Translations under genes and position numbers: made by a program
Part shown: in pieces, positions 18,512-64,000 of the stretch
Numbering within the stretch: the first letter of the stretch is position 1
Layout of the letters: every line of letters starts with the position of its first letter
Notes under the pieces: generated by a model
Told to the model about the DNA's origin: nothing
Databases searched by the model: none
What the model saw: the letters and a program-made list of their open reading frames with translations, nothing else
Origin: a virus
Taxonomy: Duplodnaviria > Caudoviricetes
DNA length: 64,000 nucleotides
IMG/VR virus record: IMGVR_UViG_3300005445_000001
Span: 1 to 64,000 of that record
Direction: 5' to 3' (one strand)

Positions 18512-19429
18512 ATGCTGATGGCACGTCTACACGGTCTTGGAACGGCCATATCGATCTTCCCAACCGGGGCCAACAGCCAGTTTCCAATCACTACGCTCCC
18601 TACCGGTGGAGGTGGTGGCGCTGGTTGGACGACAACGACACCGACGCAAAACGTGACGAGCTGGCAGTTGCCGCCGCAGTGCCCGACCGGTCAGGTGTGG
18701 GATCCGGCGAGCTCGAAGTGCGTGCAGTCTCAACCGTGCCTCCAGACGCGCGCATGCCCGACTGGTTCGACGTGGGACTGCAACAAGATGGATTGCGTAG
18801 ACACGCGGATGTGTCCGTTGTGTCCGGCCGGGATGACGATGGGTCCGCCGCCCGGACCGTGCTGTGTGCCGATGCCGGCGTGCTCGTCATGCGACGGTGG
18901 CATGATGGTCTGCGGCAACAATCCGCAGCCCGGACAAACGTGCTCGTGCAAGGTGAATGGTTGGCAGATGCAGTGCATCGTTCCACCGCCTGATACGAGC
19001 AGCGGAGGTGGTGGCGGCGGCGGAGGGGGATGCTTTCAGACGCACGCGTGCACAGGCGGCACGCATTGGGACTGCGCGATCGGGGACTGTGTTGCCGACG
19101 TTATCGTGTCTCCTCCACCCCCACCCCCAACTGATGGTGGCGGCGGCGGCGGAGGAGGTGGCGGCTTCGTTCTCGACCCTAACGGCTTCACCTGCCTATC
19201 GACGAGTCTACTCTCCAACGGCTTGTGCCCAGGCTCCTCGAGCTCGCAGCCGACCGACAGTGGTGGAGGAACGTTGCCGCCCGCTGGGCCCGGCGTGGTC
19301 GTGACCTCCGCGCCTCCTGTTCCTGTGATTGCTGATGCCGGATTCAAATGGCCGTGGTGGGCTCCGTATGCTGGGCTCGCCGCTGCCGCCGGTATCGTCT
19401 TGGGATTCGTCCTGCACGCACGAAAGTAG
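18512..19429 (+). CDS. Cys/Gly/Pro-rich C-terminally anchored putative virion protein
   Basis: N-terminal LHGLG; repeated CPxG..W..C modules; Gly/Pro linkers; C-terminal TM then HARK. Confidence 0.75.
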   Translation: MLMARLHGLGTAISIFPTGANSQFPITTLPTGGGGGAGWTTTTPTQNVTSWQLPPQCPTGQVWDPASSKCVQSQPCLQTRACPTGSTWDCNKMDCVDTRMCPLCPAGMTMGPPPGPCCVPMPACSSCDGGMMVCGNNPQPGQTCSCKVNGWQMQCIVPPPDTSSGGGGGGGGGCFQTHACTGGTHWDCAIGDCVADVIVSPPPPPPTDGGGGGGGGGGFVLDPNGFTCLSTSLLSNGLCPGSSSSQPTDSGGGTLPPAGPGVVVTSAPPVPVIADAGFKWPWWAPYAGLAAAAGIVLGFVLHARK

Positions 19430-19435
19430 GTCTTC

Positions 19436-19801
19436 ATGCTGTTCGCTACCTCTACAGGTCTGGATCCAACCATCATCGATCCGCACGCGTTCGATCCCGA
19501 TGCGTGGGGAGCTCAATCGCCGTACGACACGCAGCCAGCGGTCGCGTCGGAGTGGGGAACCAACATCGATCAGTCTGGACTGCTCACGCCGGGCGGCGTT
19601 CCGATGATCGATCCCGTGCCCAAGCCGCCGACGCCGATCGTCGGTCCGCCGCCCGCGGGCCCCGCAGCGGTTCCGGTGCCACCACCGATGCCGATGCCGA
19701 TGGTCGCGATCAGCACCGGAATGCCGTGGTGGTTGCCGATCGGTGGGCTTGCAGCCGTCGCGGGCGTCGTGGGGTTGCTCGTGTGGCGGTCACACCGGTG
19801 A
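19436..19801 (+). CDS. Pro-rich C-terminally anchored membrane protein
   Basis: PWWLPIGGLAAVAGVVGLLVWRSHR tail. Confidence 0.75.
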   Translation: MLFATSTGLDPTIIDPHAFDPDAWGAQSPYDTQPAVASEWGTNIDQSGLLTPGGVPMIDPVPKPPTPIVGPPPAGPAAVPVPPPMPMPMVAISTGMPWWLPIGGLAAVAGVVGLLVWRSHR

Positions 19802-20064
19802 GCGGCGAGCGCACCTACGTGGCTCCGCAGCCACCATCGCCGGGGCGCATCGTGCTCTACTTTTTTCGTGGACCAGATCAGACGGTCCGCAACCGTCCGG
19901 CGATCGTCACCTCGATCGTCGATGTTGACATGATCAACCTTCACGTCTTCTTCGAGCCCGGTGATCAGGTCAACGATCCTTACGCGATGAGCGTCTCAGC
20001 TCACGCCGAAGGCCCTAATGGGCCTTTCCATGCGCACACGTGGTCGTGGCCACCAAGGGTGTGA
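19798..20064 (+). CDS. Conserved phage-type small beta protein
   Basis: PSPGRIVLY..PAIVT..INLHVF..WSWPPRV; GTGA overlap. Confidence 0.6.
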   Translation: MSGERTYVAPQPPSPGRIVLYFFRGPDQTVRNRPAIVTSIVDVDMINLHVFFEPGDQVNDPYAMSVSAHAEGPNGPFHAHTWSWPPRV

Positions 20065-20067
20065 GAG

Positions 20068-20634
20068 TTGGCCAAGTCGTTCGCATCCGATTCAGTCACC
20101 ATCGGATCGCCCAAAATCGTTCACGGCTCAGATCTTCCTATCCTTGGGGCAGGAATCTCAGCACCGATCGGATCACTCTATATCTGCGATGCGGATGGAA
20201 CACATTGGGCCAAGGCCAAGGGCGGAAACAATATTTGGTCTCCACTCGGCGCAACAGCAGACGCAAACAACGGAGACACTGTCACGTTGGTAGCCGGAAC
20301 GCCCGTAGTGAGCGTAGCTGGTATGTTTCGACGCGCCGACGCATCGTCATCTAGCCTATCAACGGTGACCGGTCTAGTCATTTCAGATGCTGACCCAACG
20401 TTGCCAATGCAGATTATGCCAACAGGATCTCTTGAGCTCCTCCCCGAACAATGGGACGTAGTCACTGGAGATACTGGAGGACTGATCCCGAGCGCTGATT
20501 ACTACTTGGACGCAATTCTCGGAAGGATCACCACAACACCGCAGACCTTGCCAGGCCGATCGGTGGTGAACATTGGCCACGCTGTTTACCCAGAGTTGAT
20601 GATCATCGCCATCTCACGGCCGATTCTGCTTTAG
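20068..20634 (+). CDS. Putative spike/cement protein
   Basis: Shares QWD-V-G-TGGL...YYLD...G motif and C-terminal ILL with 20663-21139. Confidence 0.65.
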   Translation: MAKSFASDSVTIGSPKIVHGSDLPILGAGISAPIGSLYICDADGTHWAKAKGGNNIWSPLGATADANNGDTVTLVAGTPVVSVAGMFRRADASSSSLSTVTGLVISDADPTLPMQIMPTGSLELLPEQWDVVTGDTGGLIPSADYYLDAILGRITTTPQTLPGRSVVNIGHAVYPELMIIAISRPILL

Positions 20635-20662
20635 CAGAAGCTTCGGGTGTACACTTTAGGAC

Positions 20663-21139
20663 ATGGCCGTACGCAAACCTCTCGTCATCGTCAACGGACA
20701 AATCCAGCAACTCCAGTCCGGTGACACGATCTCCGATCAGGACACGGAGTTCAACCAGGTAAACGATGAGGCGACCTCGATTGTTTGCGGTACCGTCGTC
20801 TACAACGATGCCGCAGGTGGCGTGAAGAAGGCCCAAGCGAACGCGGCAGCGACCGCAAAGCCGGTCGGTCTTGTCGCTCAAGTCCCGAGCATCGCGAACG
20901 GCGTCGCCGGCGCCATCTCCGAGCAAGGCATCTTGACGCTCACCACAGCGCAGTGGGATGCGGTTGCCGGCACGACCGGCGGGCTCGCGTTCAACACGAA
21001 GTACTACCTCGATCCGGCTACTGCTGGAAAGCTGACCTCGGTGGCACCGACGACCGTTGGTCAGTACGTCGTCGAGCTCGGCCAGGCTCTATCGACGACC
21101 GATTTCAAGATCAACATCCAGACGTCGGTTCTCCTCTAA
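20663..21139 (+). CDS. Putative spike/cement protein
   Basis: Paralog of upstream gene; TTAGG RBS. Confidence 0.7.
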   Translation: MAVRKPLVIVNGQIQQLQSGDTISDQDTEFNQVNDEATSIVCGTVVYNDAAGGVKKAQANAAATAKPVGLVAQVPSIANGVAGAISEQGILTLTTAQWDAVAGTTGGLAFNTKYYLDPATAGKLTSVAPTTVGQYVVELGQALSTTDFKINIQTSVLL

Positions 21140-21354
21140 TGGCAACCCGGCTTCCTATCGTCGTCGCAACAGGTCAGCTCGAACAGCGACAAGCTGGTGA
21201 CAGCATCGACTGCGGAGTCGCGGTCGGATCGTACGCGCCCGGTAGCTTCACGCTCGCGGACGGCCAGTACGCACGCATGGTCAAGGAGCTTCGGCTCGTC
21301 GGCGCCGATCGTGCGACGCTTGCGGGCGACTCGCGCCTCGTGATCGAGGATTGA
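21139..21354 (+). CDS. Small structural protein
   Basis: TAATG overlap; N-terminus MATRLPIVVATGQLEQRQAGDSI parallels MAVRKPLVIVNGQIQQLQSGDTI. Confidence 0.65.
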   Translation: MATRLPIVVATGQLEQRQAGDSIDCGVAVGSYAPGSFTLADGQYARMVKELRLVGADRATLAGDSRLVIED

Positions 21355-21355
21355 C

Positions 21356-21991
21356 ATGGCCGACATTCTCCTCGACAACCAAACCGTCCCGACGGCGCCG
21401 GCTGCGGGCAAGGCGATCTTGTTCGTCGAGACGGGCGGCAAGCGTTTCAGCGTCAAGAATGATGCTGGCGCGATCGCCACGCTCGGTGGCGCGATCCGCA
21501 ACTGGAACACCGCAGACGTCGTCGCTAACGCGGCCGACACGTACATTACTGGCTCGAATCTTGTTGTACCAACCGGAGAGACCCTGCAAGTTGGAACGGT
21601 CTTCCGTTGGAAGATGTGGATGACGAAGACCGCAGCGGGTGTTGCTACGCCAACGTGGATCGTCCGCATCGGAACGCTCGGCACCATAGCAGACGCGGCG
21701 ATCTTGACGTTCACGGGACCTGTTCAAACCGCAGCTATCGACGCGGGGTTTGTCGAGATCATGGCTGTCCTGCGCAACGTGGGTGCTGCAGGCATTCTCG
21801 CTGGTGGACTAGCACTCACGCACAACTTGGGGACCACAGGGTTTGCAAACAGCAACACCCCAACGTTGCAGGTGACCTCATCAGGGTTTGTTACGACGAC
21901 GGCCGGTCTCATTGTCGGCCTCTCCGTGAATCCCGGTGCTGCAGGCGTCTGGACTCATCAGGTTGTGTCAGCCGAGATGCTAAATATGTAG
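21356..21991 (+). CDS. Putative fibre/receptor-binding protein
   Basis: Thr/Ala/Gly-rich beta composition; PTAPAAGKAILFV N-terminus; closes structural cluster. Confidence 0.55.
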   Translation: MADILLDNQTVPTAPAAGKAILFVETGGKRFSVKNDAGAIATLGGAIRNWNTADVVANAADTYITGSNLVVPTGETLQVGTVFRWKMWMTKTAAGVATPTWIVRIGTLGTIADAAILTFTGPVQTAAIDAGFVEIMAVLRNVGAAGILAGGLALTHNLGTTGFANSNTPTLQVTSSGFVTTTAGLIVGLSVNPGAAGVWTHQVVSAEMLNM

Positions 21992-24832: not shown

Positions 24833-25441
24833 TTACCTCCGAAGCTTGCCGCGCTCTTTGGGCATGAATGCAAAGACGAGCGCACCGATCGCGACGAGCC
24901 CACCCATCAAGATCGCCGGGCCGAACGAGTCGGAAACGCCTTGCAGGTGAACACCTGCGGGCATCGGATACGCCATCTTGGTGTAGCCAAACTGTCGGCT
25001 AGCGAAGCTACCGCACGGCGGTAGACCACAAGCCGGATTCGAGCAGTCAGGCTCCGGGCACGTTCCCTTGATACGCGCCATCGGTCGTGAGGCGAGCTTG
25101 CGAAGGAACGACGCGAACGAGAACACAGGCAAGCCGAGCGTGCCGTGCATTCCCGTCTGAGTCATCTTGTGTGCCTCTTTCGGCGTGAGGCGACGTACGA
25201 CCTTTGTGCCGGCGCGTTCGGCCAAGCACGAGTTGTCGTAGATCCGACCGTCGACAGCGAGCACCGGCATGTAGTCGGCCGAGCACGCGGCACGTTCCTC
25301 GACGACGAAGACCTCAGGGCCGTAGCTCCAAGGTCCGGGGTATCCCCAACCTCCGCCCCAACCTCCGCCACCCCAATGACCGCCACCACCGTGGTGATGA
25401 CCGCCGCCACCGTGGCCCATGCATCCATTGCAGTACAGCAT
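24833..25441 (-). CDS. Gly/His-rich protein with Kazal-like domain and C-terminal anchor
   Basis: CSADYMPVLAVDGRIYDNSCLAERAG; AAGGAG RBS; TM then KERGKLRR. Confidence 0.7.
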   Translation of the reverse strand: MLYCNGCMGHGGGGHHHGGGGHWGGGGWGGGWGYPGPWSYGPEVFVVEERAACSADYMPVLAVDGRIYDNSCLAERAGTKVVRRLTPKEAHKMTQTGMHGTLGLPVFSFASFLRKLASRPMARIKGTCPEPDCSNPACGLPPCGSFASRQFGYTKMAYPMPAGVHLQGVSDSFGPAILMGGLVAIGALVFAFMPKERGKLRR

Positions 25442-25704
25442 CAGCGTCTCCTTCGTGGACGAGCGCGCATCGTGTAGACGTGATGCTTCCCGTATTTGTA
25501 GTGGCAAACCTCAGAAGTCGAGAAACGCGTCGACGCTACCAACGTAGGATCGTACTTGCCGCCGATCTTGGTGATCCTCGCACAGTGATCCACGCGAGGA
25601 AGCTTCCGACCTTGCCGCTTGAGCGCCCGCGACAACGCGAGGAGCTGTTTCCTCGACAGTCGATCGATCTTCCGTCCGTCGAAGAGCTTGATCGATCGGC
25701 TCAT
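25441..25704 (-). CDS. Arg-rich basic protein
   Basis: Ends RARPRRRR. Confidence 0.6.
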   Translation of the reverse strand: MSRSIKLFDGRKIDRLSRKQLLALSRALKRQGRKLPRVDHCARITKIGGKYDPTLVASTRFSTSEVCHYKYGKHHVYTMRARPRRRR

Positions 25705-25892
25705 CGATAGCCTGCGACTTTCTTCGCGTGCGCGATCTCTCGGCCTGCACGCTGGCAGTAGCCGTGCCGCGCAGAATCAGCGGCGAGCCGTAGAACGTGA
25801 TCGAAGAGCGGACGGAACCGCTTGAGCGGCTTGTGCGAGCGCTTCACCGCTGCGATCTTGGCGTCGATCGCTGAGAGGTTGCAGGCCTTCAT
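25701..25892 (-). CDS. Small basic protein
   Basis: GGAG RBS; ATGA overlap. Confidence 0.55.
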   Translation of the reverse strand: MKACNLSAIDAKIAAVKRSHKPLKRFRPLFDHVLRLAADSARHGYCQRAGREIAHAKKVAGYR

Positions 25893-26110
25893 CGGCGTCT
25901 CCTACGACGTCGACGCGAGCCAGAGAGTGCGCCGTAGCTGCGTCCACGGCGACGAGCTCGGCCGTCGCAGACTTCGATCGGCGTGATGCGCGAGCCACGA
26001 TAGCGACTCTGCAGCGCGCGCGCGGCGCTTCGGCTCGTGAGTTGACCGAGCCGCGTGGTCGCCACACCGGGAACCGAGAGCGTGACCTCGTATTCGGTCC
26101 GGCAAGACAC
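25889..26110 (-). CDS. Arg-rich protein ending ALSGSRRRRRRRR
   Basis: Poly-Arg tail after LSG. Confidence 0.6.
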   Translation of the reverse strand: MSCRTEYEVTLSVPGVATTRLGQLTSRSAARALQSRYRGSRITPIEVCDGRARRRGRSYGALSGSRRRRRRRR

Positions 26111-26113
26111 GGC

Positions 26114-26785
26114 TTACCGCCGCTTCTTCTTGCCGCCGAGCGCGCGACTCGCGAGGTAGACGCCGATCCCGAGCCCGCCGATCAGGAGGAGCGGGTTGCC
26201 GGTGATCGTGTCCATGATGCCGCCGAGGCCGGAACCGTGAAGGTTCGGGAACGACGGCAACGGCACGTTGCGCGCGACGGTCGTGGTGGGCCACGGAGCG
26301 CAGACCGCACCGGGCGGACACGACGTGAACCGATAGCCAGGCGGCGGCGGACGCGTCGGAAGCTGCGTCGTCAGCACTGGACCGATCGGATACTCGGCGA
26401 TCGGCACGCCGAGCTGAGCGCCGGAGAGGAACTTGGCGTGCATCGTCTGCTCCTGCAGGTGATGCAGCGTACTGCCCCAGGTCATCGGGTGGCCGAGCGC
26501 GCTAGAACGGATGATCGACTGCCCAGCGGCGGGTGGAGCGATCGTCGAGTGACGAGCCGTCTCGTAGCCTAGAACGTCACCCCATGTCGGAGGCGAGCTC
26601 TGGTCGTACGAGAACATGCTGCCGAGGCCGGAGAGGAACTTCGCCGGGGCGCTGATGACGGCGCCGAGCAAGCCCTTGACGCCGCCCGACGCTTGTCGCG
26701 CGTGGCGGCGCATCATCCAGCGGAATGGTGGGCGCGTCATGCCAATCTGAGGACCTGACAGATCCATGATGTAACTTAGTGACAT
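26114..26785 (-). CDS. C-terminally anchored putative virion protein
   Basis: FLSGLG, LHGSGLGG motifs; TM then GGKKKRR. Confidence 0.75.
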   Translation of the reverse strand: MSLSYIMDLSGPQIGMTRPPFRWMMRRHARQASGGVKGLLGAVISAPAKFLSGLGSMFSYDQSSPPTWGDVLGYETARHSTIAPPAAGQSIIRSSALGHPMTWGSTLHHLQEQTMHAKFLSGAQLGVPIAEYPIGPVLTTQLPTRPPPPGYRFTSCPPGAVCAPWPTTTVARNVPLPSFPNLHGSGLGGIMDTITGNPLLLIGGLGIGVYLASRALGGKKKRR

Positions 26786-26788
26786 GAC

Positions 26789-27097
26789 TCACCTTTTCCT
26801 TCGACGGTGACCGGACAAGCCGAGTTTGCGCTTGATCCCACCTCCGAATTTTTGCCACCCGAAGTAGCCGAGCGCCGTCGAACCGGCGAGCACTGCAAGC
26901 GTCATCATCCAACCCGGGATCGAGTCGGTGATGTCGCCGAGCGCGCCGGTGAGGCTCTTCGCCTGGGTCGGGACGACCTTCCAGTACCACGAGCCGTACG
27001 TGCCGGGGATCCCCGCGTACTGCACGCGCTCGACGCGGTTCGGATCGAACGGGTCGAAGAAGGGCTGTTGTTCGTAGGTTTTGATATACGTGCTCAC
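26789..27097 (-). CDS. Small membrane protein with basic tail
   Basis: GGAGG RBS before GTG 27097; LTGALGD; TM; LGLSGHRRRKR. Confidence 0.7.
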   Translation of the reverse strand: MSTYIKTYEQQPFFDPFDPNRVERVQYAGIPGTYGSWYWKVVPTQAKSLTGALGDITDSIPGWMMTLAVLAGSTALGYFGWQKFGGGIKRKLGLSGHRRRKR

Positions 27098-29252: not shown

Positions 29253-30137
29253 TCATGGCTTTCTTCCCCTGATTAACAGACATTTTTTCTTGCCTCGACT
29301 AGAGGCCTTTGCGCTCACTGCGTGTCGCTCGTCAATCTCTTCAATGTGCGCCCACTTGTAGATCTCACGGATGAACGGTGTGTCATTGTTGGTCGCCCAC
29401 ACTTGCGCGCCGGTCGAAGCAAAGAACTTGAGCTCCTCAGCGAGCGAGAGTTGCTCGTCGCGTGAGAATCCGCTGCCGTCGTAGTCATCGAACATCGAAT
29501 CGTAGGGCGGATCGGCATACACCGCGATGTGCCGAGCGTCTTGCTCGCGCCAACGAGCTAGCGTGAGATGGAAATCGCCATCACAGAGCGTCGTCTGGCC
29601 GGAGCGCAGATATGTCGAGTAGCTCTCGATCTCCTCGAGCGACAGCTGACGTGGGTTCGTGAGATCACCCCACGGCACGTTGAAGAAGCCCTTGGAGTTG
29701 GTTCGCCAAAGTCCGTTGAAGCAACGAGCGTTGATAAACAGCGCATGCGCCGCCCGCTCACACCACATCAACCGATTCTGTCGGATCATCTCGTTGAATC
29801 GTGCACGCGCTTGGTAATAGCCATGCTCGGAGTTGCCGTACTTATCTTCTAGCTCGCGAAGTGCTTGGTTGAGCGGCACGGGCATCGCGCGCAGGCAACG
29901 CCACACATCCATCACGACCACGTTAACGTCGGAGAGGATTTTGATTGGGATCGTCGGTATCGACAGCGCGATCGCACCACCACCTAGAAACGGCTCGATG
30001 TATACGCGTGCCTTGCTTGCTAGGATCTCGGGTACGAGCTTGCTAGCCAGCCATCTCTTACCCCCCACAAAACGCATGAAGGGATCAAGAGGTTTGGGCG
30101 GCGCTGGCAGTGCATTTTTCGCAGCGGTGTTGCGCAT
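29253..30137 (-). CDS. dam: Dam/D12-class N6-adenine DNA methyltransferase
   Basis: FMRFVGGKRWL, YIEPFLGGG, CFNGLWRTN..FNVPWG, YADPPY. Confidence 0.9.
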   Translation of the reverse strand: MRNTAAKNALPAPPKPLDPFMRFVGGKRWLASKLVPEILASKARVYIEPFLGGGAIALSIPTIPIKILSDVNVVVMDVWRCLRAMPVPLNQALRELEDKYGNSEHGYYQARARFNEMIRQNRLMWCERAAHALFINARCFNGLWRTNSKGFFNVPWGDLTNPRQLSLEEIESYSTYLRSGQTTLCDGDFHLTLARWREQDARHIAVYADPPYDSMFDDYDGSGFSRDEQLSLAEELKFFASTGAQVWATNNDTPFIREIYKWAHIEEIDERHAVSAKASSRGKKKCLLIRGRKP

Positions 30138-30468
30138 CCCTAGCTCCAATGTCTGAGACTCCACTCCAACCAATATCACGCGCCGCGGAGAGCACCTTCG
30201 CTTGGGCCGGCTTGGGCGCGAGCGCGACGATCTTCGATCCACATCCGTCACAGGTGAGGATGTAGCGCTCGTAGATTGGATACTCACGTTCGTTTCGCTC
30301 TTCGACAATGCGAGATAGGCGATCGATCTCTTGCAATGCTGAGTTATAGAGGCCCTTGAGCCTGACGTACGCTGCAAGCTCAATCGTCTCATCCAATCTG
30401 CTAGCTTCTTCGCCATCGTTGCTCACGGGGTCAACAGCCCCTTGACGAAGTCGACGATCTCGAGCCAC
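30085..30468 (-). CDS. Hypothetical protein with two CxxC motifs
   Basis: CDGC and CEKC. Confidence 0.5.
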   Translation of the reverse strand: MARDRRLRQGAVDPVSNDGEEASRLDETIELAAYVRLKGLYNSALQEIDRLSRIVEERNEREYPIYERYILTCDGCGSKIVALAPKPAQAKVLSAARDIGWSGVSDIGARDAQHRCEKCTASAAQTS

Positions 30469-30605
30469 TCTGGCGTGCTCAAATCTACCTCGCGACGGAT
30501 CACCCAGCCACGACGATGGAGCTCCTCGCGCATCCGATCACGAAGCTGCTCGTAGCTGATCACGTACTCGCCGGGGTCTACGTGACGAAGCATTACGGCA
30601 ACCAT
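30423..30605 (-). CDS. Hypothetical protein
   Basis: Packed ORF. Confidence 0.5.
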   Translation of the reverse strand: MVAVMLRHVDPGEYVISYEQLRDRMREELHRRGWVIRREVDLSTPEWLEIVDFVKGLLTP

Positions 30606-31243
30606 CCATCTGGAAGAGGAGCGATCGCTGTCATTCCGTGTTGAGCATCGCCACCCGAGACAACACCGATGAGATCACCATCGCCATCATAGACGCCTGC
30701 ACCACTGTCGCCGTGCTGCGTCTTGACTTTGATGAGTAAATCACCAGAGCCACATTGAACTCCTCGTGATAGTGCTACACAGCGAAGCTGATCCTTGCGC
30801 CAAGATAGCTTGGCCGGAACCACGTCGAGGACTTCGGCCGAAGCGATCTCGAGGAGCGCTACATCGGCGTCGATGTCCTCGCGAACGACGACAACCCGAC
30901 GATGCGATCCATCGCTCATACGAATACGAGCCGTAGGAATCACCGGGCACATCGTCACGTGCGCGGCGGTCAGCAGATGTCGCCCATCGATGAACACGGC
31001 CGAGCCGCTGCGACGTGGATACCACTCGATCGTGTCGGTCGGCGGCAGTCCATCAGGATGCGGCGCGAGCATGTCTAGCTCGGAGCACCACACGGTGATC
31101 GTTGCGGAGTAGGCGGCTTGGCTGATCCACGAACGCGAGGTCTTCGGCTCGGTCGGAGCCTTCGGAACCAGGCAAGCTGAGAGCAACATCAAGATCACAA
31201 ACCTCATCACTTGTTCCATGCTTATCCGGTTGTCACCCCTCAC
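30593..31243 (-). CDS. Trypsin-like serine protease, predicted lipoprotein
   Basis: LTAAHV (His), DVALL (Asp), GDSGAG (Ser); MRFVILMLLSAC lipobox from Met13. Confidence 0.85.
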   Translation of the reverse strand: MRGDNRISMEQVMRFVILMLLSACLVPKAPTEPKTSRSWISQAAYSATITVWCSELDMLAPHPDGLPPTDTIEWYPRRSGSAVFIDGRHLLTAAHVTMCPVIPTARIRMSDGSHRRVVVVREDIDADVALLEIASAEVLDVVPAKLSWRKDQLRCVALSRGVQCGSGDLLIKVKTQHGDSGAGVYDGDGDLIGVVSGGDAQHGMTAIAPLPDGWLP

Positions 31244-31879: not shown

Positions 31880-32110
31880 TTAACCGGATAAGCATGACTT
31901 GTTCTCCTCTGACATCAACCTACGAAGCTCTTTCCAAGCCGCGACCGATTCGGGGCTCGGGTCATAGATATTGACCGTCACCAACGATTGGTTCTCGGTT
32001 CCGTTGATCGCCTCGAAGATCCGCTTGAACATCGTCGTTTCGTTCTCGCTTGTGTTAACCAGGACTTCGAAGCGCAAAAATCTTCCACCATGTTTTGGTT
32101 CGGTATTCAT
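31880..32110 (-). CDS. Hypothetical protein
   Basis: ATGA overlap. Confidence 0.5.
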   Translation of the reverse strand: MNTEPKHGGRFLRFEVLVNTSENETTMFKRIFEAINGTENQSLVTVNIYDPSPESVAAWKELRRLMSEENKSCLSG

Positions 32111-32604: not shown

Positions 32605-33134
32605 TTCATCAAACTCCCATCTTGAGCAAGCTCGTGGAGAAATTCTGCGAGCGTGGCGTAGATGATCACTTGCAGCTGAAGGAGCTGCAGTTTGCCGGGA
32701 TCGGTCTCACCGGCGATCTTGCCCCGGCACGCAGAGACCTTGCTCGTGCAGCGTGTGGCGATCTTCATGAACGTCCGCGAGACGATCTGATCGGTTCCCA
32801 AGAGCTTACCGAACATTGATCCCTTCCCTTCGAACGATGTTTGCAACTCCCCAACGCTCACAGCATTCGTTAGCGCCGATCGATGCTGGGCATTCGCCGA
32901 ACGTCTTGCAGTTGCAGGACGCGACCCACACCGTTGGGTGGTAGAGAATCTTGCTGACGGTCTCATCAGAGTAGAGGCTTCTGATCTTCGCGATGAACGC
33001 AAGGCCAGGTTGGCCATCGTCGGGCAACCACTTGTTGGTGTAGATGACCTTGCGAGCTCGACGGCGCGAGACGATCTCGAGCCGGAACACCTTTACGGTA
33101 TCGGCCATGCTCGGAGGTCGGCAAAACGGGTGCT

Positions 33135-34285: not shown

Positions 34286-34330
34286 TTGAGCGGCTCCCCG
34301 AGTGTTCCCTTGAGTTGGGCGATGCGGCGC

Positions 34331-41053: not shown

Positions 41054-41075
41054 TGCTGTTTCTCCTGTTGGTTTT

Positions 41076-56755: not shown

Positions 56756-57052
56756 GTGAAGACGATCTTTTGGATCGCGATCTTCTTGACGTGTGCTGGG
56801 ATCAGTTGGGTCGTGTTCGATGACTTCGGCTTTCACTACGTCATCGCTGCGGGTGTTGTCGCGAGCGCATACGTCTTGATTTGTATCGATGGACACCCCA
56901 AGGATCAGCTAACGCCTAAGGAGCCAGATAAACCAAGGAACGGTTTCTTTGTGTTCCTCGTGTCGCTATTGATCGGCCTCTTGTGGCCGGCATTGCCGAT
57001 CCTCATCGCCGCGGGGCGCGTGAAGACCGATGATACCGACGGGGCCGCTTGA
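56756..57052 (+). CDS. Membrane protein
   Basis: GTGA overlap; three hydrophobic segments. Confidence 0.55.
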   Translation: MKTIFWIAIFLTCAGISWVVFDDFGFHYVIAAGVVASAYVLICIDGHPKDQLTPKEPDKPRNGFFVFLVSLLIGLLWPALPILIAAGRVKTDDTDGAA

Positions 57053-57323
57053 GGCCTGCAAGCCCGGTGTGACGAGCATCGAAGATGCGCAGCAACACGA
57101 ACACGCTCATGAGGCCGCTTGCGATCGCGGCGCCCATAAATGCACGTTTAGCATCGATTCCTACTACCATCATGGCGGGCGCGATCAGAATCGTACGCGC
57201 CACTGTCCAACCCGCGAGCCGCAACCCTGAGCCCTTGTCCTTTTCCAACACGTCTGCCGCCGTGCGGTAGGTAGGAAGCGCGAACTGAGCCATGACCGAA
57301 GAGAGTATACCAAACCCAACCAA
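57003..57323 (-). CDS. Membrane protein with basic tail
   Basis: TM segments then GLAGLKRPRRYHRSSRAPRR. Confidence 0.65.
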   Translation of the reverse strand: MVGFGILSSVMAQFALPTYRTAADVLEKDKGSGLRLAGWTVARTILIAPAMMVVGIDAKRAFMGAAIASGLMSVFVLLRIFDARHTGLAGLKRPRRYHRSSRAPRR

Positions 57324-60054: not shown

Positions 60055-60360
60055 CTATCGACGATGCTTGTAGCCGGCGGCAAAAATGCTCACTAGAATT
60101 GCCGCCGTCGCAACGCCCCCGAGCATTAGACCCAACACTGTGTAGTCAAGTCCCGACTGCCCAAATCCAGTGCCACGCAACTTTGATGCGGTCGCGTACG
60201 GATCCCAAAATCGGCCGACCGATGGTGGACCGATCTCGGCGGGAAAAGAAACTGGAGGGAACGGTGGTGTGATGTACCAACCCGGCTCGTCGGGTGGGCA
60301 AAACGGGAACGGCGCGCCGAGTTGCATCGTGTACGTTCCGGGCGAGACACCGACGGTCAT
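60055..60360 (-). CDS. Small C-terminally anchored membrane protein
   Basis: LRGTGFG; TM then YKHRR. Confidence 0.7.
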   Translation of the reverse strand: MTVGVSPGTYTMQLGAPFPFCPPDEPGWYITPPFPPVSFPAEIGPPSVGRFWDPYATASKLRGTGFGQSGLDYTVLGLMLGGVATAAILVSIFAAGYKHRR

Positions 60361-60629
60361 CGACAGCTCCTGCGCGAGCCGGAGACGCCCGCTGAGCTCC
60401 GCTTGGTGCGCTTGAATGCAGCGAGCGCGATGAGGAGAGCTCCACCAGCAAGCGCCCCAAGGCCAAAGATGTAAGGCTGGATCACTTCCTGAGCCCCTTC
60501 TTCGGCACCTTCTTTGGCCGTCTGCTTGATGAAGTTCTTGAAGTCTTCGAGCTTCTGATCGACCGTTCCGCCGCCGGGAATGATCGCCAGAATCGATCGG
60601 AGATCTGAGATCGCGTCACGGAGCGCCAT
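60357..60629 (-). CDS. Small membrane protein with basic tail
   Basis: TM then KRTKRSSAGVSGSRRSCR. Confidence 0.7.
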   Translation of the reverse strand: MALRDAISDLRSILAIIPGGGTVDQKLEDFKNFIKQTAKEGAEEGAQEVIQPYIFGLGALAGGALLIALAAFKRTKRSSAGVSGSRRSCR

Positions 60630-60644
60630 GATTAGATCTTAACG

Positions 60645-60830
60645 CTATTTGCGTCCCTTGTACCAGCGATAGCCGAAGAAGGCTCCGGCTCCGATGAGGC
60701 CAAGGCCCCACCAAGTCATGTACCAAGGCTCATTGAGGCTCGCGATCGTGACGTTTGGTGGAAGCGCATTCGCGGGCGGAATGATCTGGCCAGGAGGGAT
60801 CGGGGTATCACGAAGACCGACGAACATCAT
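60645..60830 (-). CDS. Small C-terminally anchored membrane protein
   Basis: GGAGG RBS; PWYMTWW, TM, YRWYKGRK. Confidence 0.7.
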   Translation of the reverse strand: MMFVGLRDTPIPPGQIIPPANALPPNVTIASLNEPWYMTWWGLGLIGAGAFFGYRWYKGRK

Positions 60831-60842
60831 GGGATCCTCCGA

Positions 60843-61277
60843 TCACTTGAGCATCATGTAAGCGAGCACCGCTCCGCCACCGAGGACGACGATCATGAGC
60901 GGATTCTGGTACCACGGCTTGGGCGGCATCATCGGCATCGGCGTGAGAGGCACGCACGCGCCTGCTTGGTTAGCGACCGCACCAGGCGGGCACGTTGGAC
61001 TCTGCGGCGTGAGGAAGTGCTTGAGGAACTCACCGATCGCCGCGCCGCTACCAGCGCCGACGTTCGTCCACGTCGATGAGCTCTGTTGCTGTTGCTGTCC
61101 ACCACCTCCGCCACCCGAGCTCGAGTCGGGAATGGCGTTGGGACAGATCGCCATGTTGTTACCGGGGTAGCAACAGATCGCGTCGTCACCGGTGCCGATC
61201 TGCTGATATGGGCACGTGTCGCCGGCCCAATTTGCGAAACCAAAACCGGAAGCGGGCGCGCCGCGGAATACGAGCAT
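60843..61277 (-). CDS. Cys-rich C-terminally anchored membrane protein
   Basis: Starts MLVFRG; CPPG module; PWYQNP then TM. Confidence 0.75.
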   Translation of the reverse strand: MLVFRGAPASGFGFANWAGDTCPYQQIGTGDDAICCYPGNNMAICPNAIPDSSSGGGGGGQQQQQSSSTWTNVGAGSGAAIGEFLKHFLTPQSPTCPPGAVANQAGACVPLTPMPMMPPKPWYQNPLMIVVLGGGAVLAYMMLK

Positions 61278-61305
61278 GTCTCTACTCTATCACGAGCTTG
61301 GAATC

Positions 61306-62478
61306 TTAGGGTGAAGCCGCCGGGGCGGGCTTCGGCTTGTCGGATCCACTGAACAGTAGGAACGTCAACACACCCCCGATGATCAAGATCGGCAACCACG
61401 GAATGCTCGTCGGTGCCGGTGCGCACATCTTCGTCGCCATGTTCATCACGTAGCCGGGCGGGCACTGTGGTAGTTGTCCAGCCTGGCATGCTTGCATGAG
61501 CGATTGAGGGTTTTGTCCCTTGGCTGCTCCGCCCGCGATCACCGAGAGGCCGAGCGCGAGCGCTTGGGCGGCCTCGGGATCTTTGAGTAGCTCGCAAGCC
61601 ATCCCGCCGATCGCTGCGGCGACATCCTTCGCGAGCTCGAGAATGGTCGCGACGATGAACTCACCAGCGTTCTCGATGAACCATCCAATACCACTCAACG
61701 TGAACCCAGAGCAGCCTTGGTCGTCTTTGATGAATTTGACATTGTCGAGATAGCCCTTGACCTCAGCTGGATCCATCTTGCGCGCGCGCATGAAGAGGCC
61801 ATGTGCGACCTTGCGACTTCCCGACGGCAACGTGCCGACTTTGTCTTTGACCCATGCAGGCGTGTATGTATCTGCAGTGAGCTCAGTGTGATCGTCCTTC
61901 GTGACGAGGAAGATGCCCCAAACATCTTGCGTGCCTGGGTACATGAAGATGTAGAGTGGAATTCCCGGATAGGCCGTCTGCCTTCCAATAGGGTCTGTTG
62001 ACGTGACCGGATCTTCGATCAGATTGAGAAGCGCCGGAACGGGGTGTCCACCATCGACGGTGGGAGGATTCAACCCAGGAACCGATCCCTGGTAAGAGAC
62101 GCCTGAGAACCGGCCCCATCGTGTGCCGCGCTTGCAGGTGAATGCATTGGAGTCGTAGCCCTCACCCTTGATCGTCTCCCAAAACGTGCTCGCGGCGTCG
62201 ATCGTGTCGGCGAGCCACGAGTATTGTGGCGGAACCGATGTGATGGGAACGTCGCCACCGTTGACCGGAAACGTCAACGCCAACGGAAGTTGAACCGTTC
62301 CGCTCTTGCGCGTTCCGGTCACACCAAAGGCGCCGCCGATCTGTAGCGCAGCCTCACTAGCCCCGGGCGAGTAGGGCCACGGCAATTGCGTGACCGTCAA
62401 TTGTCCGTTGGCACCGGCTTGGTACGCCTGTTGGTTCTGAAGGTTGATACCGATGATGGAGCCGGCCCAAGTAGCCAT
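61306..62478 (-). CDS. Large C-terminally anchored putative virion protein
   Basis: CPPGYVMNMATKMC module before PWLPILIIGGVLTFLLF. Confidence 0.75.
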   Translation of the reverse strand: MATWAGSIIGINLQNQQAYQAGANGQLTVTQLPWPYSPGASEAALQIGGAFGVTGTRKSGTVQLPLALTFPVNGGDVPITSVPPQYSWLADTIDAASTFWETIKGEGYDSNAFTCKRGTRWGRFSGVSYQGSVPGLNPPTVDGGHPVPALLNLIEDPVTSTDPIGRQTAYPGIPLYIFMYPGTQDVWGIFLVTKDDHTELTADTYTPAWVKDKVGTLPSGSRKVAHGLFMRARKMDPAEVKGYLDNVKFIKDDQGCSGFTLSGIGWFIENAGEFIVATILELAKDVAAAIGGMACELLKDPEAAQALALGLSVIAGGAAKGQNPQSLMQACQAGQLPQCPPGYVMNMATKMCAPAPTSIPWLPILIIGGVLTFLLFSGSDKPKPAPAASP

Positions 62479-62492
62479 GCCGCTAGGGTAAC

Positions 62493-63230
62493 ATGACTTG
62501 TGTTAACCTACTGATCGTGTCCGAAGACCGATTTGCAAAGATCTCTGCGTTCATCGGGATCGGGTTGGTCCTCGTCGGTGGGGTCATGCTCTGGCAACAG
62601 CGACGAGCCACGACCAGTTTCAACGGTCTGGGACGCCCGCGCTATCGTCGAGTCGAAGGAATGGCCGAAGAGGCCCCCGTGATCGATGGGTTCTCGGATG
62701 GCAACATGCACACCGAGATCCGCGCGAGCGATGAAATGCCGATCGAGCAACGGCTAGCGACCATCCAGCGCAAGATCTACGAAGGGACCAAAGACCCCGA
62801 GATGCGCAAGCTAGCGCTCGCGATCACCTCGCAGTGCCCCGAGCGCGATGGGCTCTGCGAGGCCAAGGCGATCTACAAAGCGGTCAAGAAACGGGTCCGC
62901 TACTCTGGTGACATCGCGCCGATCAAGCACCCCAATGGTCAGGTCGAAGGGATCGATCTCTACCAGAGCGCGCGCCGCACGTGGGAGTTCAAAGCTGGGG
63001 ACTGTGACGACACGGCGATCCTGATCAGCACCCTGCTTGCGCACAACGGGATCACTCCACGTTTGCGCGTGACCGCCGAGGATAAACATAGCGATGACGG
63101 TCACATCTACGTGATTGCGCTCCTGCCCAAGTTCAATCCGTCCTACTCTGTCGCGCTCGATGCGACCTTGCCCGGAAACAAGTTCAACGTGGAAGCGCCG
63201 GCGGCGCGCGTGACGGACTTCGACGCATGA
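62493..63230 (+). CDS. Transglutaminase-like cysteine protease with N-terminal anchor
   Basis: GDCDD (Cys), GHIYV (His), ALDAT (Asp); N-terminal TM then FNGLGRPRYRR. Confidence 0.85.
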   Translation: MTCVNLLIVSEDRFAKISAFIGIGLVLVGGVMLWQQRRATTSFNGLGRPRYRRVEGMAEEAPVIDGFSDGNMHTEIRASDEMPIEQRLATIQRKIYEGTKDPEMRKLALAITSQCPERDGLCEAKAIYKAVKKRVRYSGDIAPIKHPNGQVEGIDLYQSARRTWEFKAGDCDDTAILISTLLAHNGITPRLRVTAEDKHSDDGHIYVIALLPKFNPSYSVALDATLPGNKFNVEAPAARVTDFDA

Positions 63231-63436
63231 TGGACAGCCTCTACAACTTCGTGAATCCGAACTATGCCGCAGCGCTTACACTCAAGACGCAGTGTGCTGC
63301 GTCGCCGGTTAGCTGTGTCGAGATCAACAAGGCGTACGATCTCGAGCTCGACATGGCAGTGACTCGCCTGCGCTGGATCGGGTTGGGTCTTTTAGTCGTA
63401 GGTGGAATCGCCATTTTCCGACGAGGAAGAGCATGA
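63227..63436 (+). CDS. Small membrane protein
   Basis: C-terminal TM then RRGRA. Confidence 0.65.
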   Translation: MMDSLYNFVNPNYAAALTLKTQCAASPVSCVEINKAYDLELDMAVTRLRWIGLGLLVVGGIAIFRRGRA

Positions 63437-63846
63437 AGAAGAAACCCTATCTCACGTTCCTCTCCGGCTTAGGCGATGCCGCCACGATCGATCCTGGCTC
63501 GTTCCTTGCTGCGAATCCGACGCCAACCGCGAGCGACGTCGCACAGTTTCTCGCGAGCGTGCCCAACGCGCAGCGCCCGGAAGCGGCACAAGCACTCGTC
63601 GATGCTGGTGTCGATCCCGACGTTGTGCAACACGGTTTGATGTTCGCGAACACGCGCACCGGGTTGAGTTGGTCGTGGTTCACCGGCACGCTCACCGTCG
63701 CCGCGTCGGCGGCGGCAACGTTTCACGGCTACCGACGAAACAAGTCGGTGTTCTGGGCCTTGGTGTATGGTCTAGGTGCAATGATGTTCCCGATCGCCAC
63801 GACCGCGGTCACGTTGGGTCAAGGCTGGGGAAAGCCGAAGCCATGA
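63433..63846 (+). CDS. Membrane protein
   Basis: N-terminal FLSGLGD; two TM segments. Confidence 0.75.
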   Translation: MKKKPYLTFLSGLGDAATIDPGSFLAANPTPTASDVAQFLASVPNAQRPEAAQALVDAGVDPDVVQHGLMFANTRTGLSWSWFTGTLTVAASAAATFHGYRRNKSVFWALVYGLGAMMFPIATTAVTLGQGWGKPKP

Positions 63847-64000
63847 AGCGCAAGATCAAGTGCCGCAAAGGCGAGAAACGGTTCACCGTGCTTGTTGTGA
63901 ATCACGATCCCTACGACTCGCATGCGGGCCGATCGTTCGAGCAAGCGTTCGACCAGGCGAACCCCGATCGGGGTAGCCACATTGAGGTCTACGCGACGTG
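63843..64000 (+). CDS. Hypothetical protein, 3'-partial
   Basis: ATGA overlap; open to window end. Confidence 0.5.
   Translation, partial: MKRKIKCRKGEKRFTVLVVNHDPYDSHAGRSFEQAFDQANPDRGSHIEVYAT

Follow-up and report, generated by a model that had tools for sequence, protein, structure and literature searches.

A large, putatively tailless soil bacterial virus with membrane and candidate shell genes and no recognisable packaging motor

Introduction

How does a virus build its particle when the hallmark genes of tailed phages cannot be recognised in it? The question is raised by the genome of an uncultured soil bacterial virus, a single contig of 85,650 bp, of which the window, the whole 64,000-nucleotide stretch analysed here, makes up bases 1-64000 (about three quarters). 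The first 90 bases of the contig are found again at its end, and IMG/VR classes the record as “direct terminal repeats”; this 90-bp terminal repeat indicates that the contig is a complete genome, so that the sequence flanking the window is fully readable. The original prediction was of a tailless, membrane-containing virus from a large undescribed lineage. The reading put forward here, held at slightly better than even chances, is that of a large virus that lacks both a tail and a packaging motor and has a jelly-roll shell and an internal membrane. That it is tailless and contains a membrane is the best reading of hallmark absences, an enrichment of membrane proteins and one fold, of a 337-amino-acid (aa) protein, predicted at medium confidence.

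Gene content and clade

The features of the genome are collected in Table 1. Bacterial signals include a peptidoglycan-binding endolysin, sigma-type regulators and a pilin motif, and the PG_binding_1 domain of the endolysin points to a bacterial host with a peptidoglycan wall. The annotated genes show a virus equipped to copy its own DNA, with a UDG-fused family A polymerase, predicted D5-type SF3 and SNF2 helicases and a Sak4/DUF669/PD-(D/E)XK set. Further genes encode a dUTPase, a kinase, DNA methyltransferases and sigma-type regulators, and a holin-like pair and the endolysin close the gene set.

Table 1. Features of the genome (positions are the same in window and genome).
Feature	Position	Strand	Basis or remark
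Endolysin, weak GH25-like match and PG_binding_1 domain	37..747	+	profile match
Tyrosine recombinase, phage integrase family	14900..15844	+	Pfam E 7e-18
Two paralogous tail-anchored proteins, 305 aa (Gly-rich) and 121 aa, tails HARK and WRSHR	18512..19801	+	no Pfam family
Four beta-rich fibre-like proteins	20068..21991	+	sequence; no Pfam family above threshold
Tail-anchored GDSL-type lipase/acylhydrolase, 230 aa	23105..23797	+	Lipase_GDSL_2 E 4e-7, 31.1 bits, slightly below the 32.9-bit cut-off; 57% identity in relative G001
Tail-anchored cluster (24833-25441, 26114-26785, 26789-27097)	24833..27097	-	tail-anchor rule
Two very basic small proteins amid this cluster, net +20 and +11	25441-25892	-	sequence
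Dam-type N6-adenine DNA methyltransferase	29253..30416	-	Pfam MethyltransfD12 E 1e-38
Trypsin-like serine protease	30593..31189	-	Pfam Trypsin_2 E 3e-8
Low-GC patch	32107..35921	-	the next three rows
Endonuclease VII (two genes)	32107-32604, 34331-34840	-	
ThyX	33443-34285	-	
HNH_3+AP2 homing endonuclease	35415-35921	-	
Family A DNA polymerase, N-terminal uracil-DNA-glycosylase-superfamily domain, 1029 aa	35903..38992	-	Pfam DNA_pol_A E 2e-36, UDG E 5e-16; phrog_17
Recombination module: DUF669, Sak4-like AAA_24 ATPase (41076-41960), PD-(D/E)XK exonuclease (42913-44010)	40505..44010	-	
SNF2-family helicase	44447..46036	-	Pfam SNF2-rel_dom and Helicase_C; phrog_62 E 7e-68
Predicted D5-type SF3 replicative helicase, 550 aa	46128..47780	+	AF2 fold, Foldseek, VIA
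Tail-anchored protein, 131 aa, paralogue of 19436-19801	48031..48426	-	blastp all-vs-all
Q/A/E/P-rich coiled-coil protein, acidic tail, 699 aa	54380..56479	+	35% identity over 707 aa in G001
Two polytopic small membrane proteins (3 TM on +; 2 TM, very basic tail on -)	56756..57293	+ and -	sequence
Tail-anchored protein, 116 aa	58862..59212	-	kept in G001 and L012 (comparison with relatives)
Run of tail-anchored proteins (101, 90, 144, 390 aa; 61-aa ORF between), partly paralogous	60055..62478	-	
Transglutaminase-like Cys-His-Asp enzyme, N-terminal membrane anchor	62493..63230	+	Pfam Transglut_core
Two tail-anchored proteins, 69 and 137 aa	63227..63846	+	tail-anchor rule
Two tail-anchored proteins inside late block	64088-64405, 75566-76096		beyond window
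Very conserved 236-aa protein	67788-68498		beyond window
165-aa partner protein	69364-69861		beyond window
337-aa protein of two beta-sandwiches	70195-71208		beyond window
Pectate-lyase beta-helix “tail spike” protein 1	76729-78846		beyond window; PHROG tail-spike match
Pectate-lyase beta-helix “tail spike” protein 2	78846-81056		beyond window; PHROG tail-spike match

The predicted lineage is borne out by more than 423 relatives of the 236-aa core protein, at 65-86% identity, and more than 214 homologues of the 550-aa helicase, some with inteins, while the core protein has no match in 50,697 GenBank phage records. Relatives of the two proteins sit on contigs of 55-220 kb; complete clade members span 77-138 kb and contigs of the clade reach 221 kb, as against 7-18 kb for published bacterial double jelly-roll viruses (PMC5894146). 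Most likely, this is a widespread, undescribed clade of unusually large tailless viruses. The suggestion of a myxobacterial host has no basis: the MAG bins of relatives are labelled Actinomycetes, Polyangiales, Gemmatimonadota, Alphaproteobacteria and Tepidisphaeraceae, so that myxobacteria are one of five mutually inconsistent assignments. The one match to a “chromosome” does not prove a prophage, because the matched sequence is a scaffold with a 100-N gap.

An integrase, a rich replication and recombination set and the lack of any packaging motor found would also suit a plasmid or other mobile element with a large replication module. The genome has, however, a peptidoglycan-binding endolysin, holin-like proteins, depolymerase spikes and a fibre cassette, and there are no conjugation or partition genes among its Pfam hits. 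Genome size is constant and terminal repeats recur across the clade (in 10 of 21 records), and its small beta-rich core proteins are strongly conserved, all of which makes a non-viral origin highly improbable.

Hallmark genes and the packaging motor

Terminase, portal, HK97 capsid, tail tube, sheath and tape measure gave no Pfam or PHROGs match among the approximately 165 ORFs of the window and the whole genome. Across the clade, Terminase_6N, TerL_ATPase, Phage_portal, Phage_capsid and Pox_A32 were each found in 0 of 21 records, and control genomes were positive in every one of these clade-level searches. The original prediction that no terminase, portal, HK97 capsid or tape-measure gene can be recognised thus holds for the window and the genome, terminase, portal and HK97 capsid genes being absent beyond the window too. 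Its claim of no tail gene stands for tube and sheath, but two proteins beyond the window match PHROG “tail spike” families (E 1e-14 and 3e-10) and carry a Pect-lyase_RHGA_epim domain (E 2e-19 and 9e-12).

Could these hallmarks have drifted past detection? A very divergent tailed phage of the Caudoviricetes, with its beta-helix proteins as short-tail tailspikes, would fit the tail-spike matches and the adaptor module common to five fibres, which recalls multi-spike podoviruses. HMM negatives leave room for HK97, portal or tail proteins of great divergence; the 469-aa (6236-7645), 699-aa, 390-aa and 375-aa proteins have no family assignment, which also counts against the best reading; and atlas neighbours of two proteins carry the label Uroviricota, an automatic one. 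However, the large terminase is easier to detect than any other phage protein, yet both terminase families are missing from all 21 records, as are the portal and HK97 families, and no P-loop protein is left over for the terminase role. Neither the 699-aa protein, a coiled coil of low complexity and a candidate scaffold or size-ruler, nor the 375-aa protein, with 29% glycine, is portal-like, and the most conserved structural protein, at 236 aa, is short for an HK97-fold capsid protein. A tailed phage in disguise is therefore given about one chance in ten in our judgement, that is, quite unlikely.

The FtsK/A32-like ATPase expected in the flanks of the window is absent, both by a census of Walker A motifs and by a profile search of the 21 clade records. 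Only two canonical Walker A motifs occur in all six frames, in the Sak4-like protein and the 550-aa protein, and a relaxed rule adds none. In the clade-level search FtsK_SpoIIIE did no more than touch the P-loop of the Sak4-like gene, at 12 bits, further Walker A proteins in relatives are UvrD-like, RadD/XPB-like and MoxR-like, and no FtsK, HerA or A32 ATPase was found in the genome. The product of 46128-47780 was ruled out as a packaging ATPase or terminase by its confident D5-type helicase fold. Its AF2 model (pLDDT 89.6) matches NrS-1, Cch and AsfvPrimPol in Foldseek (E 3e-8), and VIA aligns it with vaccinia D5 (8apl_A; Z 17.7, rmsd 7.9, 387 aligned) and 7ola_A (Z 14.8). It bears Walker A, Walker B and sensor-Asn motifs, and no other replication gene of the clade is as conserved. 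Since the sole unexplained P-loop protein is thus a D5-type helicase, an FtsK/A32 packaging ATPase is absent too.

Membrane proteins

Tail-anchored proteins were defined by one hydrophobic segment ending at most 30 residues from the C-terminus, followed by a tail of net positive charge. Between 18512 and 64000 this rule picks out 12-13 such proteins whichever of five threshold settings is used, and 15 when the settings are combined; the shortest has 69 aa and the longest 390 aa. The predicted class of more than 15 small tail-anchored proteins is thus slightly over-counted and not uniformly small. Genome-wide, 15 of 152 genes qualify, against 5 of 286 decoy ORFs from the same genome (Fisher p 4e-4) and, under the same calling, 2 of 138 in the tailed controls Mx8 and LIT1 (p 2e-3). 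Five relatives have 5-10 each, and pooled with this genome give 53/800 genes versus 26/1682 decoys.

Two observations count against the best reading: relative G010 shows no excess, and the textbook internal-membrane phage PRD1 has only 1 tail-anchored protein in 23, which means that tail-anchoring as such is no known mark of membrane phages. The premise that internal-membrane viruses carry many such proteins is accordingly sound for small membrane proteins in general and not for tail-anchored ones. The overall share of membrane proteins, 38/152 or 25%, lies between that of the tailed controls (13%) and that of PRD1 (35%), and suits a membrane phage better than the tail-anchor count does. In addition, a basic tail behind the anchor is hard to translocate across a membrane, leaving the assumed topology uncertain.

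These proteins might instead act in the infected cell, in superinfection exclusion, lysis timing, envelope remodelling or a membrane-bound replication site, the particle being pleomorphic, enveloped or a lipid-free shell. Tail-anchored genes are indeed spread over early and late regions and both strands, not just beside the shell block, and many are not kept in G001; the relative without excess, PRD1 and the basic tails, which speak against simple insertion with the tail translocated, point the same way. Against this, the core block of every relative mixes membrane proteins among the shell candidates: an anchored transglutaminase-like protein, a Gly/Ala-rich one, a Cys-rich one with 2 TM and the tail-anchored products of 64088-64405 and 75566-76096. 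Such a different build is considered unlikely.

The late block and candidate shell proteins

The conserved, syntenic late block runs from 62493 to about 76100 and recurs in 8 related loci, one of them distant. Its first gene encodes the transglutaminase-like enzyme, a clade-wide core protein (35-58% identity), and its other members are the Gly/Ala-rich membrane protein, the 236-aa, 165-aa and 337-aa proteins, the Cys-rich membrane protein and a thioredoxin. As to how the 236-aa and 165-aa proteins fold, the sole hint comes from weak neighbours in a language model (0.76-0.77).

The search for a double jelly-roll capsid protein in the flanks, suggested by the original prediction, gave a partial answer in the 337-aa protein. 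Its model has 8+8 strands at medium confidence (pLDDT 61.8), with a poorly modelled N-terminal half. Among PDB entries, Foldseek ranks highest the coat protein of STIV (E 5e-5, prob 0.96), which is of similar length at 345 aa, and eight PRD1/PR772 P3 chains, all in whole-chain alignments, but with TM-scores of about 0.2 and rmsd of about 20 Å. VIA-align backs the C-terminal jelly roll (Z about 10) and not the N-terminal half, and its matches to this sandwich are generic (GOLD, TNF-like, PRD1 P5, STIV A223); predicted viral structures give a mixture of capsid, fibre and unknown proteins. As a trimer, the protein is predicted with a median score of 0.83, versus 0.00 for the best control, contacts agreeing between runs to at least 76% and partner pLDDT being at least 74. 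In calibration, 20 of the 30 solved one-chain pairs came up to this mark, as did 1 of the 23 single chains; the calibration is rough here owing to the three copies and own alignment used. A beta-sandwich trimer suits a fibre head as well as it does a capsomer.

Is the virus then a giant relative of the PRD1/STIV-type viruses (Bamfordvirae) that once had a packaging ATPase and lost it, with the 236-aa protein in a minor or cementing role? The matches, strand count, length and trimer of the 337-aa protein are all in its favour, as is a family of 277 representatives. The low TM-scores and generic C-terminal matches are not; moreover, the 337-aa protein is conserved at 30-35% identity among relatives and the 236-aa protein at 65-86%, the gene of the former is missing between its neighbours in relative L012, and there is no sequence-profile link to PRD1 P3. 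Such descent seems doubtful.

Proposed assembly

In the tailless, membrane-containing virus favoured here, the late block would provide a protein shell of jelly-roll type over a membrane modified by the virus, in which tail-anchored proteins may sit with their N-terminal domains facing the shell. Five spikes or fibres would dock at the vertices through a common N-terminal module, found by all-vs-all blastp in the product of 20068-20634 and four spike/fibre proteins at 76729-82930, and two of the spikes may be polysaccharide depolymerases that open a path to the cell surface. The lack of a packaging motor suggests, as proposed for Sulfolobus polyhedral virus 1 (SPV1), that condensation of the genome probably comes first and that the shell closes around it during assembly, with no pumping into a preformed shell. 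This is the weakest step; candidates for condensation are the basic anchor tails and the two very basic small proteins.

Comparison with known systems

The two spikes share a pectate-lyase beta-helix and PHROG families with tailspikes of podoviruses and other tailed phages; unlike theirs, the putative docking module matches nothing in 50,697 GenBank phage records, and no tail, adaptor or baseplate gene provides a docking site. The 550-aa protein matches the collar, AAA+ core and C-terminal domain of vaccinia D5, the C-terminal region of the phage NrS-1 primase-helicase, the SaPI5 primase-helicase and SCCmec Cch, but differs in having neither an attached primase domain nor a Pfam family.

Matsushitaviridae and Salisaeta phage SSIP-1 differ in genome size (about 17-44 kb, SSIP-1 having about 44 kb) and in possessing a packaging ATPase, and gave no sequence match in a phage collection that should contain them. 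They (P23-77, IN93) infect bacteria and have a membrane inside the shell and a pair of different small coat proteins whose genes lie together (PMC6356626), all features that the present virus, with its two candidate coat proteins, may share.

With Tectiviridae (PRD1, PR772) and STIV the virus shares the best matches of the predicted 337-aa trimer, and with PRD1 numerous small membrane proteins, a holin and endolysin for lysis and, as proposed here, vertex spikes that dock by an N-terminal part. Profile comparison showed no similarity to P3, P31, P5 or P9 of PRD1. The 15-kb genome of PRD1 encodes a protein-primed family B polymerase and P9, an ATPase of the FtsK type, whereas the present 85.6 kb encode a family A polymerase and a D5-type helicase, an FtsK/A32 ATPase being absent from all 21 clade records; the tail-anchored fractions (1/23 and 15/152) differ as well.

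SPV1 (Portogloboviridae), to which no sequence link was found, has a 20-kb circular genome and a hyperthermophilic archaeal host that it does not lyse, in contrast to the 85.6 kb, bacterial signals, own replisome and fibre cassette seen here. Its icosahedral shell encloses a lipid layer, with subcapsomer proteins between shell and membrane; it has no packaging ATPase, and its genome is thought to be condensed as nucleoprotein and then enclosed, not pumped in (PMC8459092). Like its VP4 and VP10, the two small shell-protein candidates of the present virus, of 236 and 165 aa, are encoded side by side.

A complete genome and its P-loop proteins

The record is a single contig of 85,650 bp, of which the window covers bases 1-64000. 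The contig ends with an exact copy of its first 90 bases; in IMG/VR it stands as 100% complete, under 'direct terminal repeats'. The original prediction, of a tailless membrane virus, left the flanking sequence to be searched; since the genome is complete, that sequence exists in full (L001 and L002, the portions beyond the window), and coordinates above 64000 are genome numbering, continuous with the window.

Canonical Walker A motifs are scarce, two in the six frames together, and loosening the rule brings up no others. The first lies in a Sak4-like AAA_24 protein within a DUF669/exonuclease recombination cassette, the second at residue 221 in the product of 46128-47780, a 550-aa protein that matches no family. 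Across the clade, the undescribed group of related records marked by a 236-aa core protein, the latter is the gene conserved best: over 214 relatives share 50-59% identity with it, and several of the homologues are interrupted by inteins. This pattern of conservation would suit a terminase as well.

Could the 550-aa protein be the packaging motor? Its model, built on a 65-sequence alignment (pLDDT 89.6), is matched by Foldseek to the C-terminal region of NrS-1, Cch and AsfvPrimPol (E 3e-8), and in VIA-align it scores Z 17.7 against vaccinia D5 (387 residues, rmsd 7.9), 17.2 against a further vaccinia D5 structure and 14.8 against the SaPI5 primase-helicase. A D5N collar, an SF3 AAA+ core and a C-terminal domain are all present, and Walker A/B and the sensor Asn are seen in the family alignment. 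Because the likeness of fold runs over all three parts, the protein is, on its predicted structure, a D5-type SF3 replicative helicase. The Foldseek and VIA-align matches to this fold rule out a terminase or packaging ATPase, and the last packaging-motor candidate is gone: with both Walker A proteins placed in replication and recombination, no spare P-loop protein is left to serve as a terminase or an FtsK/A32 ATPase. Four other complete relatives carry further Walker A proteins: two helicases, one UvrD/PcrA-like and one RadD/XPB-like, and an AAA+ protein of MoxR-like type.

Hallmark genes in the genome and the clade

Pfam and PHROG screens covered about 165 ORFs, 30 large proteins singly and 135 further ORFs in bulk; a second pass took 30 more proteins individually and reran the ten largest unknowns with E up to 10. 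Across these ORFs there is no family match to a terminase, portal, HK97 capsid, scaffold or head-tail connector, nor to a tail tube, sheath, tape measure or baseplate. In composition, the unassigned proteins of 375-699 aa are unlike portals. The only connector-class PHROG match is a weak one to a pre-neck appendage, via a beta-helix, and 'tail' matches are limited to two paralogues beyond the window, the two longest module carriers in the table. Residues 66-266 of the first (76729-78846) match the beta-helix of pectate-lyase type in Pfam (E 2e-19) and tail-spike families in PHROGs (E 1e-14); judged from sequence, this is a receptor-binding depolymerase domain and not in itself part of a tail. 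Terminase, portal or tail genes outside the window would have spoken against the tailless architecture; the first two gave no match there, and the third appears only weakly, through these beta-helix spikes.

The same picture holds among relatives. A search of IMG/VR with the 236-aa protein brings up 21 records, 39-221 kb long; terminal repeats mark ten of them (77.5-138 kb). Terminase_6N, TerL_ATPase, Phage_portal and Phage_capsid each match none of the 21 (for the capsid this is a profile screen, which a divergent HK97 fold could escape), nor does Pox_A32 at the curated cut-off; the control genomes matched in each case. FtsK_SpoIIIE is absent from all 21 at its curated cut-off, its sole signal being a 12-bit contact with the P-loop of the Sak4-like protein. 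No Caudoviricetes large terminase with ATPase and nuclease is matched, either among the roughly 165 ORFs of the genome or, by two profiles, in the 21 records, and the FtsK/A32-type ATPase that had been expected is missing from this genome, as its two profiles are from the clade. The D5-type helicase is found in 15 of the 21 records. Two long ones, G013 (221,422 bp; locus L026) and G014 (195,792 bp; L027), carry both the 236-aa protein (62-63% identity) and this helicase; if they are single, non-chimeric genomes, the clade extends to jumbo size.

Replication genes and genome composition

The original description of the replication set as unusually full is fair: it comprises a polymerase (a PolA-UDG fusion), two helicases (D5-type and SNF2), a recombination module (Sak4/DUF669/PD-(D/E)XK) and nucleotide enzymes (ThyX, dUTPase and a nucleotide kinase). 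No primase was recognised in the Pfam and PHROG screens of the genome. Dam and FkbM-type methyltransferases, sigma-type regulators and a tyrosine recombinase are also encoded. Against 50,697 deposited phage records (tblastn), the helicase and the 236-aa protein find no match, and the polymerase finds matches only below 30% identity.

Genome GC is 58%, dipping to 52% at 32-36 kb, and three endonuclease VII and three HNH genes account for the low-GC patches. Free-standing homing-endonuclease genes sit in these patches among the replication genes. All five listed in the table were missed by the codon-usage gene caller, consistent with foreign composition; that caller gives 158 genes at a coding density of 87%, to which ten long ORFs it missed were added. 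The genome search found no tRNA genes. A TANNNT box begins 12-13 nt upstream of the start codon in 23 genes of the window (0.66 expected per position), including those at 18512, 20663, 23105, 23813, 48031, 50298 and 61306, and its position points to many leaderless transcripts; a Shine-Dalgarno-like 4-mer is present at about half of the genes in the window. Tandem paralogues of 147 and 143 aa at 2791-3685 are 66% identical to each other and are kept in three of four relatives compared (37-52% identity).

A conserved block of shell candidates

A block of genes lying mostly beyond the window is syntenic in eight related loci and holds the candidates for the shell.

Coordinates of the shell block, the carriers of the shared N-terminal module and the free-standing homing-endonuclease genes
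Feature	Position	Remark
Transglutaminase-like enzyme	62493-63230	Shell block; membrane-anchored; first in block
Small tail-anchored proteins		Shell block; after the transglutaminase-like enzyme
HTH gene	65618-66154	Shell block; after the small tail-anchored proteins
Met/Gly-rich protein	66300-66833	Shell block
Gly/Ala-rich membrane protein	67053-67715	Shell block
236-aa protein	67788-68498	Shell block
165-aa protein	69364-69861	Shell block
106-aa protein		Shell block; between the 165-aa and 337-aa proteins
337-aa protein	70195-71208	Shell block
Cys-rich 2-TM protein	71691-72584	Shell block
Thioredoxin-like protein	72603-72965	Shell block; CPAC motif
Module carrier	20068-20634	In the window
Module carrier	76729-78846	Beyond the window
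Module carrier	78846-81056	Beyond the window
Module carrier	81345-81794	Beyond the window
Module carrier	81803-82930	Beyond the window
Homing endonuclease	27335-28204	HNH
Homing endonuclease	32107-32604	Endonuclease VII
Homing endonuclease	34331-34840	Endonuclease VII
Homing endonuclease	35415-35921	HNH_3+AP2
Homing endonuclease	59392-59910	Endonuclease VII

By far the most conserved protein of the block is the 236-aa one, found at constant length in more than 423 proteins at 65-86% identity and still at 47% where the locus is most distant. All the named Atlas clusters nearest to it are PM2 P2 or PRD1 P3 coat families, at a score of 0.76-0.77 that the tool itself rates as lead-level. Alignment by hhalign of the 236-aa, 165-aa and 337-aa families with PRD1 P3, P31, P5 and P9 and with one another gives probabilities of at most 0.5%. 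In the PDB, the 337-aa, 236-aa and 550-aa families meet nothing, by sequence or by profile, beyond noise or weak RFC P-loop matches.

The 337-aa protein was modelled from 15 sequences (pLDDT 61.8, pTM 0.64) with 8+8 strands. Among PDB entries Foldseek ranks the STIV coat protein best (E 5e-5), with PRD1/PR772 P3 also matched, at a TM of only about 0.2, and VIA-align restricts the likeness to the C-terminal sandwich (Z about 10); among predicted viral structures the list is a mixture of capsid polyproteins, fibres and unknowns. A three-copy binding prediction has a median of 0.83 against 0.00 for the best control, with contacts agreeing between runs at 76% or above and partner pLDDT at 74 or above; of 30 solved one-chain pairs 20 attain the mark, as does 1 of 23 single chains, a calibration that applies only roughly here. 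On these models the protein is predicted to form a trimer. The family counts 277 representatives; a first scan with it found one locus in viral contigs and none in genomes. Since identity is only 30-35% and the gene is missing in one related locus (L012), the protein is treated as a second capsomer or vertex spike and not as the main coat protein.

The Cys-rich and thioredoxin-like pair (71691-72965; L001:7691-8965) is kept across the clade. The pair may give the virus a disulfide system for its particle proteins, recalling that of poxviruses. Within the window, a 699-aa protein (54380-56479), with 35% identity in a relative, combines a Q/A/E-rich helical middle of about 350 residues with proline-rich linkers and a tail that is strongly acidic. 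A scaffold or a ruler of capsid size is a possible role; an Atlas search gave nothing usable, the protein's own model having a pLDDT of 0.50 and a TM of at most 0.21.

Tail-anchored proteins and spikes

Tail-anchored proteins were counted by a fixed rule: one Kyte-Doolittle segment ending no more than 30 residues from the C-terminus and more than 25 from the N-terminus, followed by a net positive tail. Fifteen of 152 genes qualify, 13 of them within 18512-64000, and the count is stable at 12-13 across five threshold settings (union 15). The frequency is lower in composition-matched decoy ORFs of the same genome (5/286, p 4e-4) and in the tailed phages Mx8 and LIT1 with genes called in the same way (2/138, p 2e-3). 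Counts of 10/110, 6/131, 10/132, 7/141 and 5/134 in relatives make the excess a tendency of the clade, if an uneven one. The internal-membrane phage PRD1 has 1 in 23, so that tail-anchoring is a peculiarity of the clade and not a known signature of membrane phages; the overall share of membrane proteins is 25% here, against 13% in the tailed controls and 35% in PRD1. This share and the 15 tail-anchored proteins could point, indirectly, to a lipid membrane beneath a shell. Several of the tail-anchored proteins are paralogous to each other, and one is a GDSL-type lipase slightly below the Pfam cut-off. Their basic tails fit poorly with a tail-translocated topology. As for DNA condensation, our guess at candidates falls on the basic tails of the anchors and on the basic proteins encoded at 25441-25892.

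Five proteins have an N-terminal module of 60-110 residues in common, which finds no match in the 50,697 phage records by tblastn. The spike cassette is swapped for other proteins in relatives, and the module looks to be a docking part shared by interchangeable fibres. At 20663-21139, a fibre-like 158-aa protein matches Pfam XM1_gp53_minor_capsid below threshold (E 0.007, 16.7 bits; cut-off 27).

Host and source

Bacterial signals are plain: the genome encodes an endolysin carrying PG_binding_1, regulators of the Sigma70_r4_2/GerE type and a bacterial pilin N-methylation motif. The last lies mid-protein (residues 185-211; Pfam N_methyl E 1e-10) in a 350-aa protein (11864-12916), with a 180-residue domain ahead of it. 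The source is probably a rhizosphere metagenome, the sole DNA sequencing run with this sequence; the sequencing-run search lists no RNA run with it. Relatives fall in MAG bins labelled Actinomycetes, Polyangiales, Gemmatimonadota, Alphaproteobacteria and Tepidisphaeraceae. The match in a Gemmatimonadota 'chromosome' was rejected as a prophage, since a scaffold gap of 100 Ns falls in the locus and 1.5 Mb separate it from the helicase homologue. Given this gapped scaffold and five inconsistent labels, the myxobacterial host proposed earlier is possible but not indicated.

Possible assembly without a motor and comparison with known systems

The boldest reading of these observations, which we consider less likely than not, is of a cosmopolitan clade with jelly-roll, membrane-lined particles, no packaging NTPase and genomes five to ten times those of any published tailless prokaryotic virus, forming a lineage at or above class rank. 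Complete members measure 77-138 kb and contigs reach 221 kb. New here are the helicase assignment, a screen for hallmark genes across the clade, a tail-anchor census with controls, a spike module common to five proteins and a 337-aa predicted trimer whose gene is non-universal.

To our knowledge, characterised bacterial viruses of this genome size are all tailed, a terminase motor filling a preformed head. If a common soil clade of 77-138 kb does without tail, portal and packaging ATPase, the size range of the jelly-roll, membrane-containing architecture would grow several-fold. How would 85 kb of DNA then be enclosed without a motor? A co-assembly route for very long DNA would be implied, in which portal and motor would give way to tail-anchored, basic-tailed proteins, a lipase bound to the membrane, the thiol-disulfide pair and a long coiled-coil 'ruler'. 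The 236-aa protein and the D5-type helicase offer marker genes for counting such viruses in viromes, where tools at present label them tailed phages or unclassified.

Among bacterial viruses of jelly-roll, membrane-containing build, SSIP-1 has a genome of up to about 44 kb. Published bacterial double jelly-roll, membrane-containing viruses have genomes of 7-18 kb (PMC5894146), and literature searches found no large one. PRD1 and STIV are the closest systems for the 337-aa protein, a likeness that does not amount to family membership; the FtsK/HerA-superfamily (A32-like) packaging ATPase of the PRD1-type Bamfordvirae/Tectiliviricetes is absent here. The closest working analogue is SPV1, which builds a single jelly-roll shell, a layer of lipid and a core of nucleoprotein without an ATPase (PMC8459092). 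The present virus may resemble it in build, short of family membership: no packaging ATPase is seen here either, by the Walker A census and the FtsK_SpoIIIE and Pox_A32 screens, whereas Portogloboviridae have an archaeal host and a genome of about 20 kb, against bacterial signals and 85.6 kb here.
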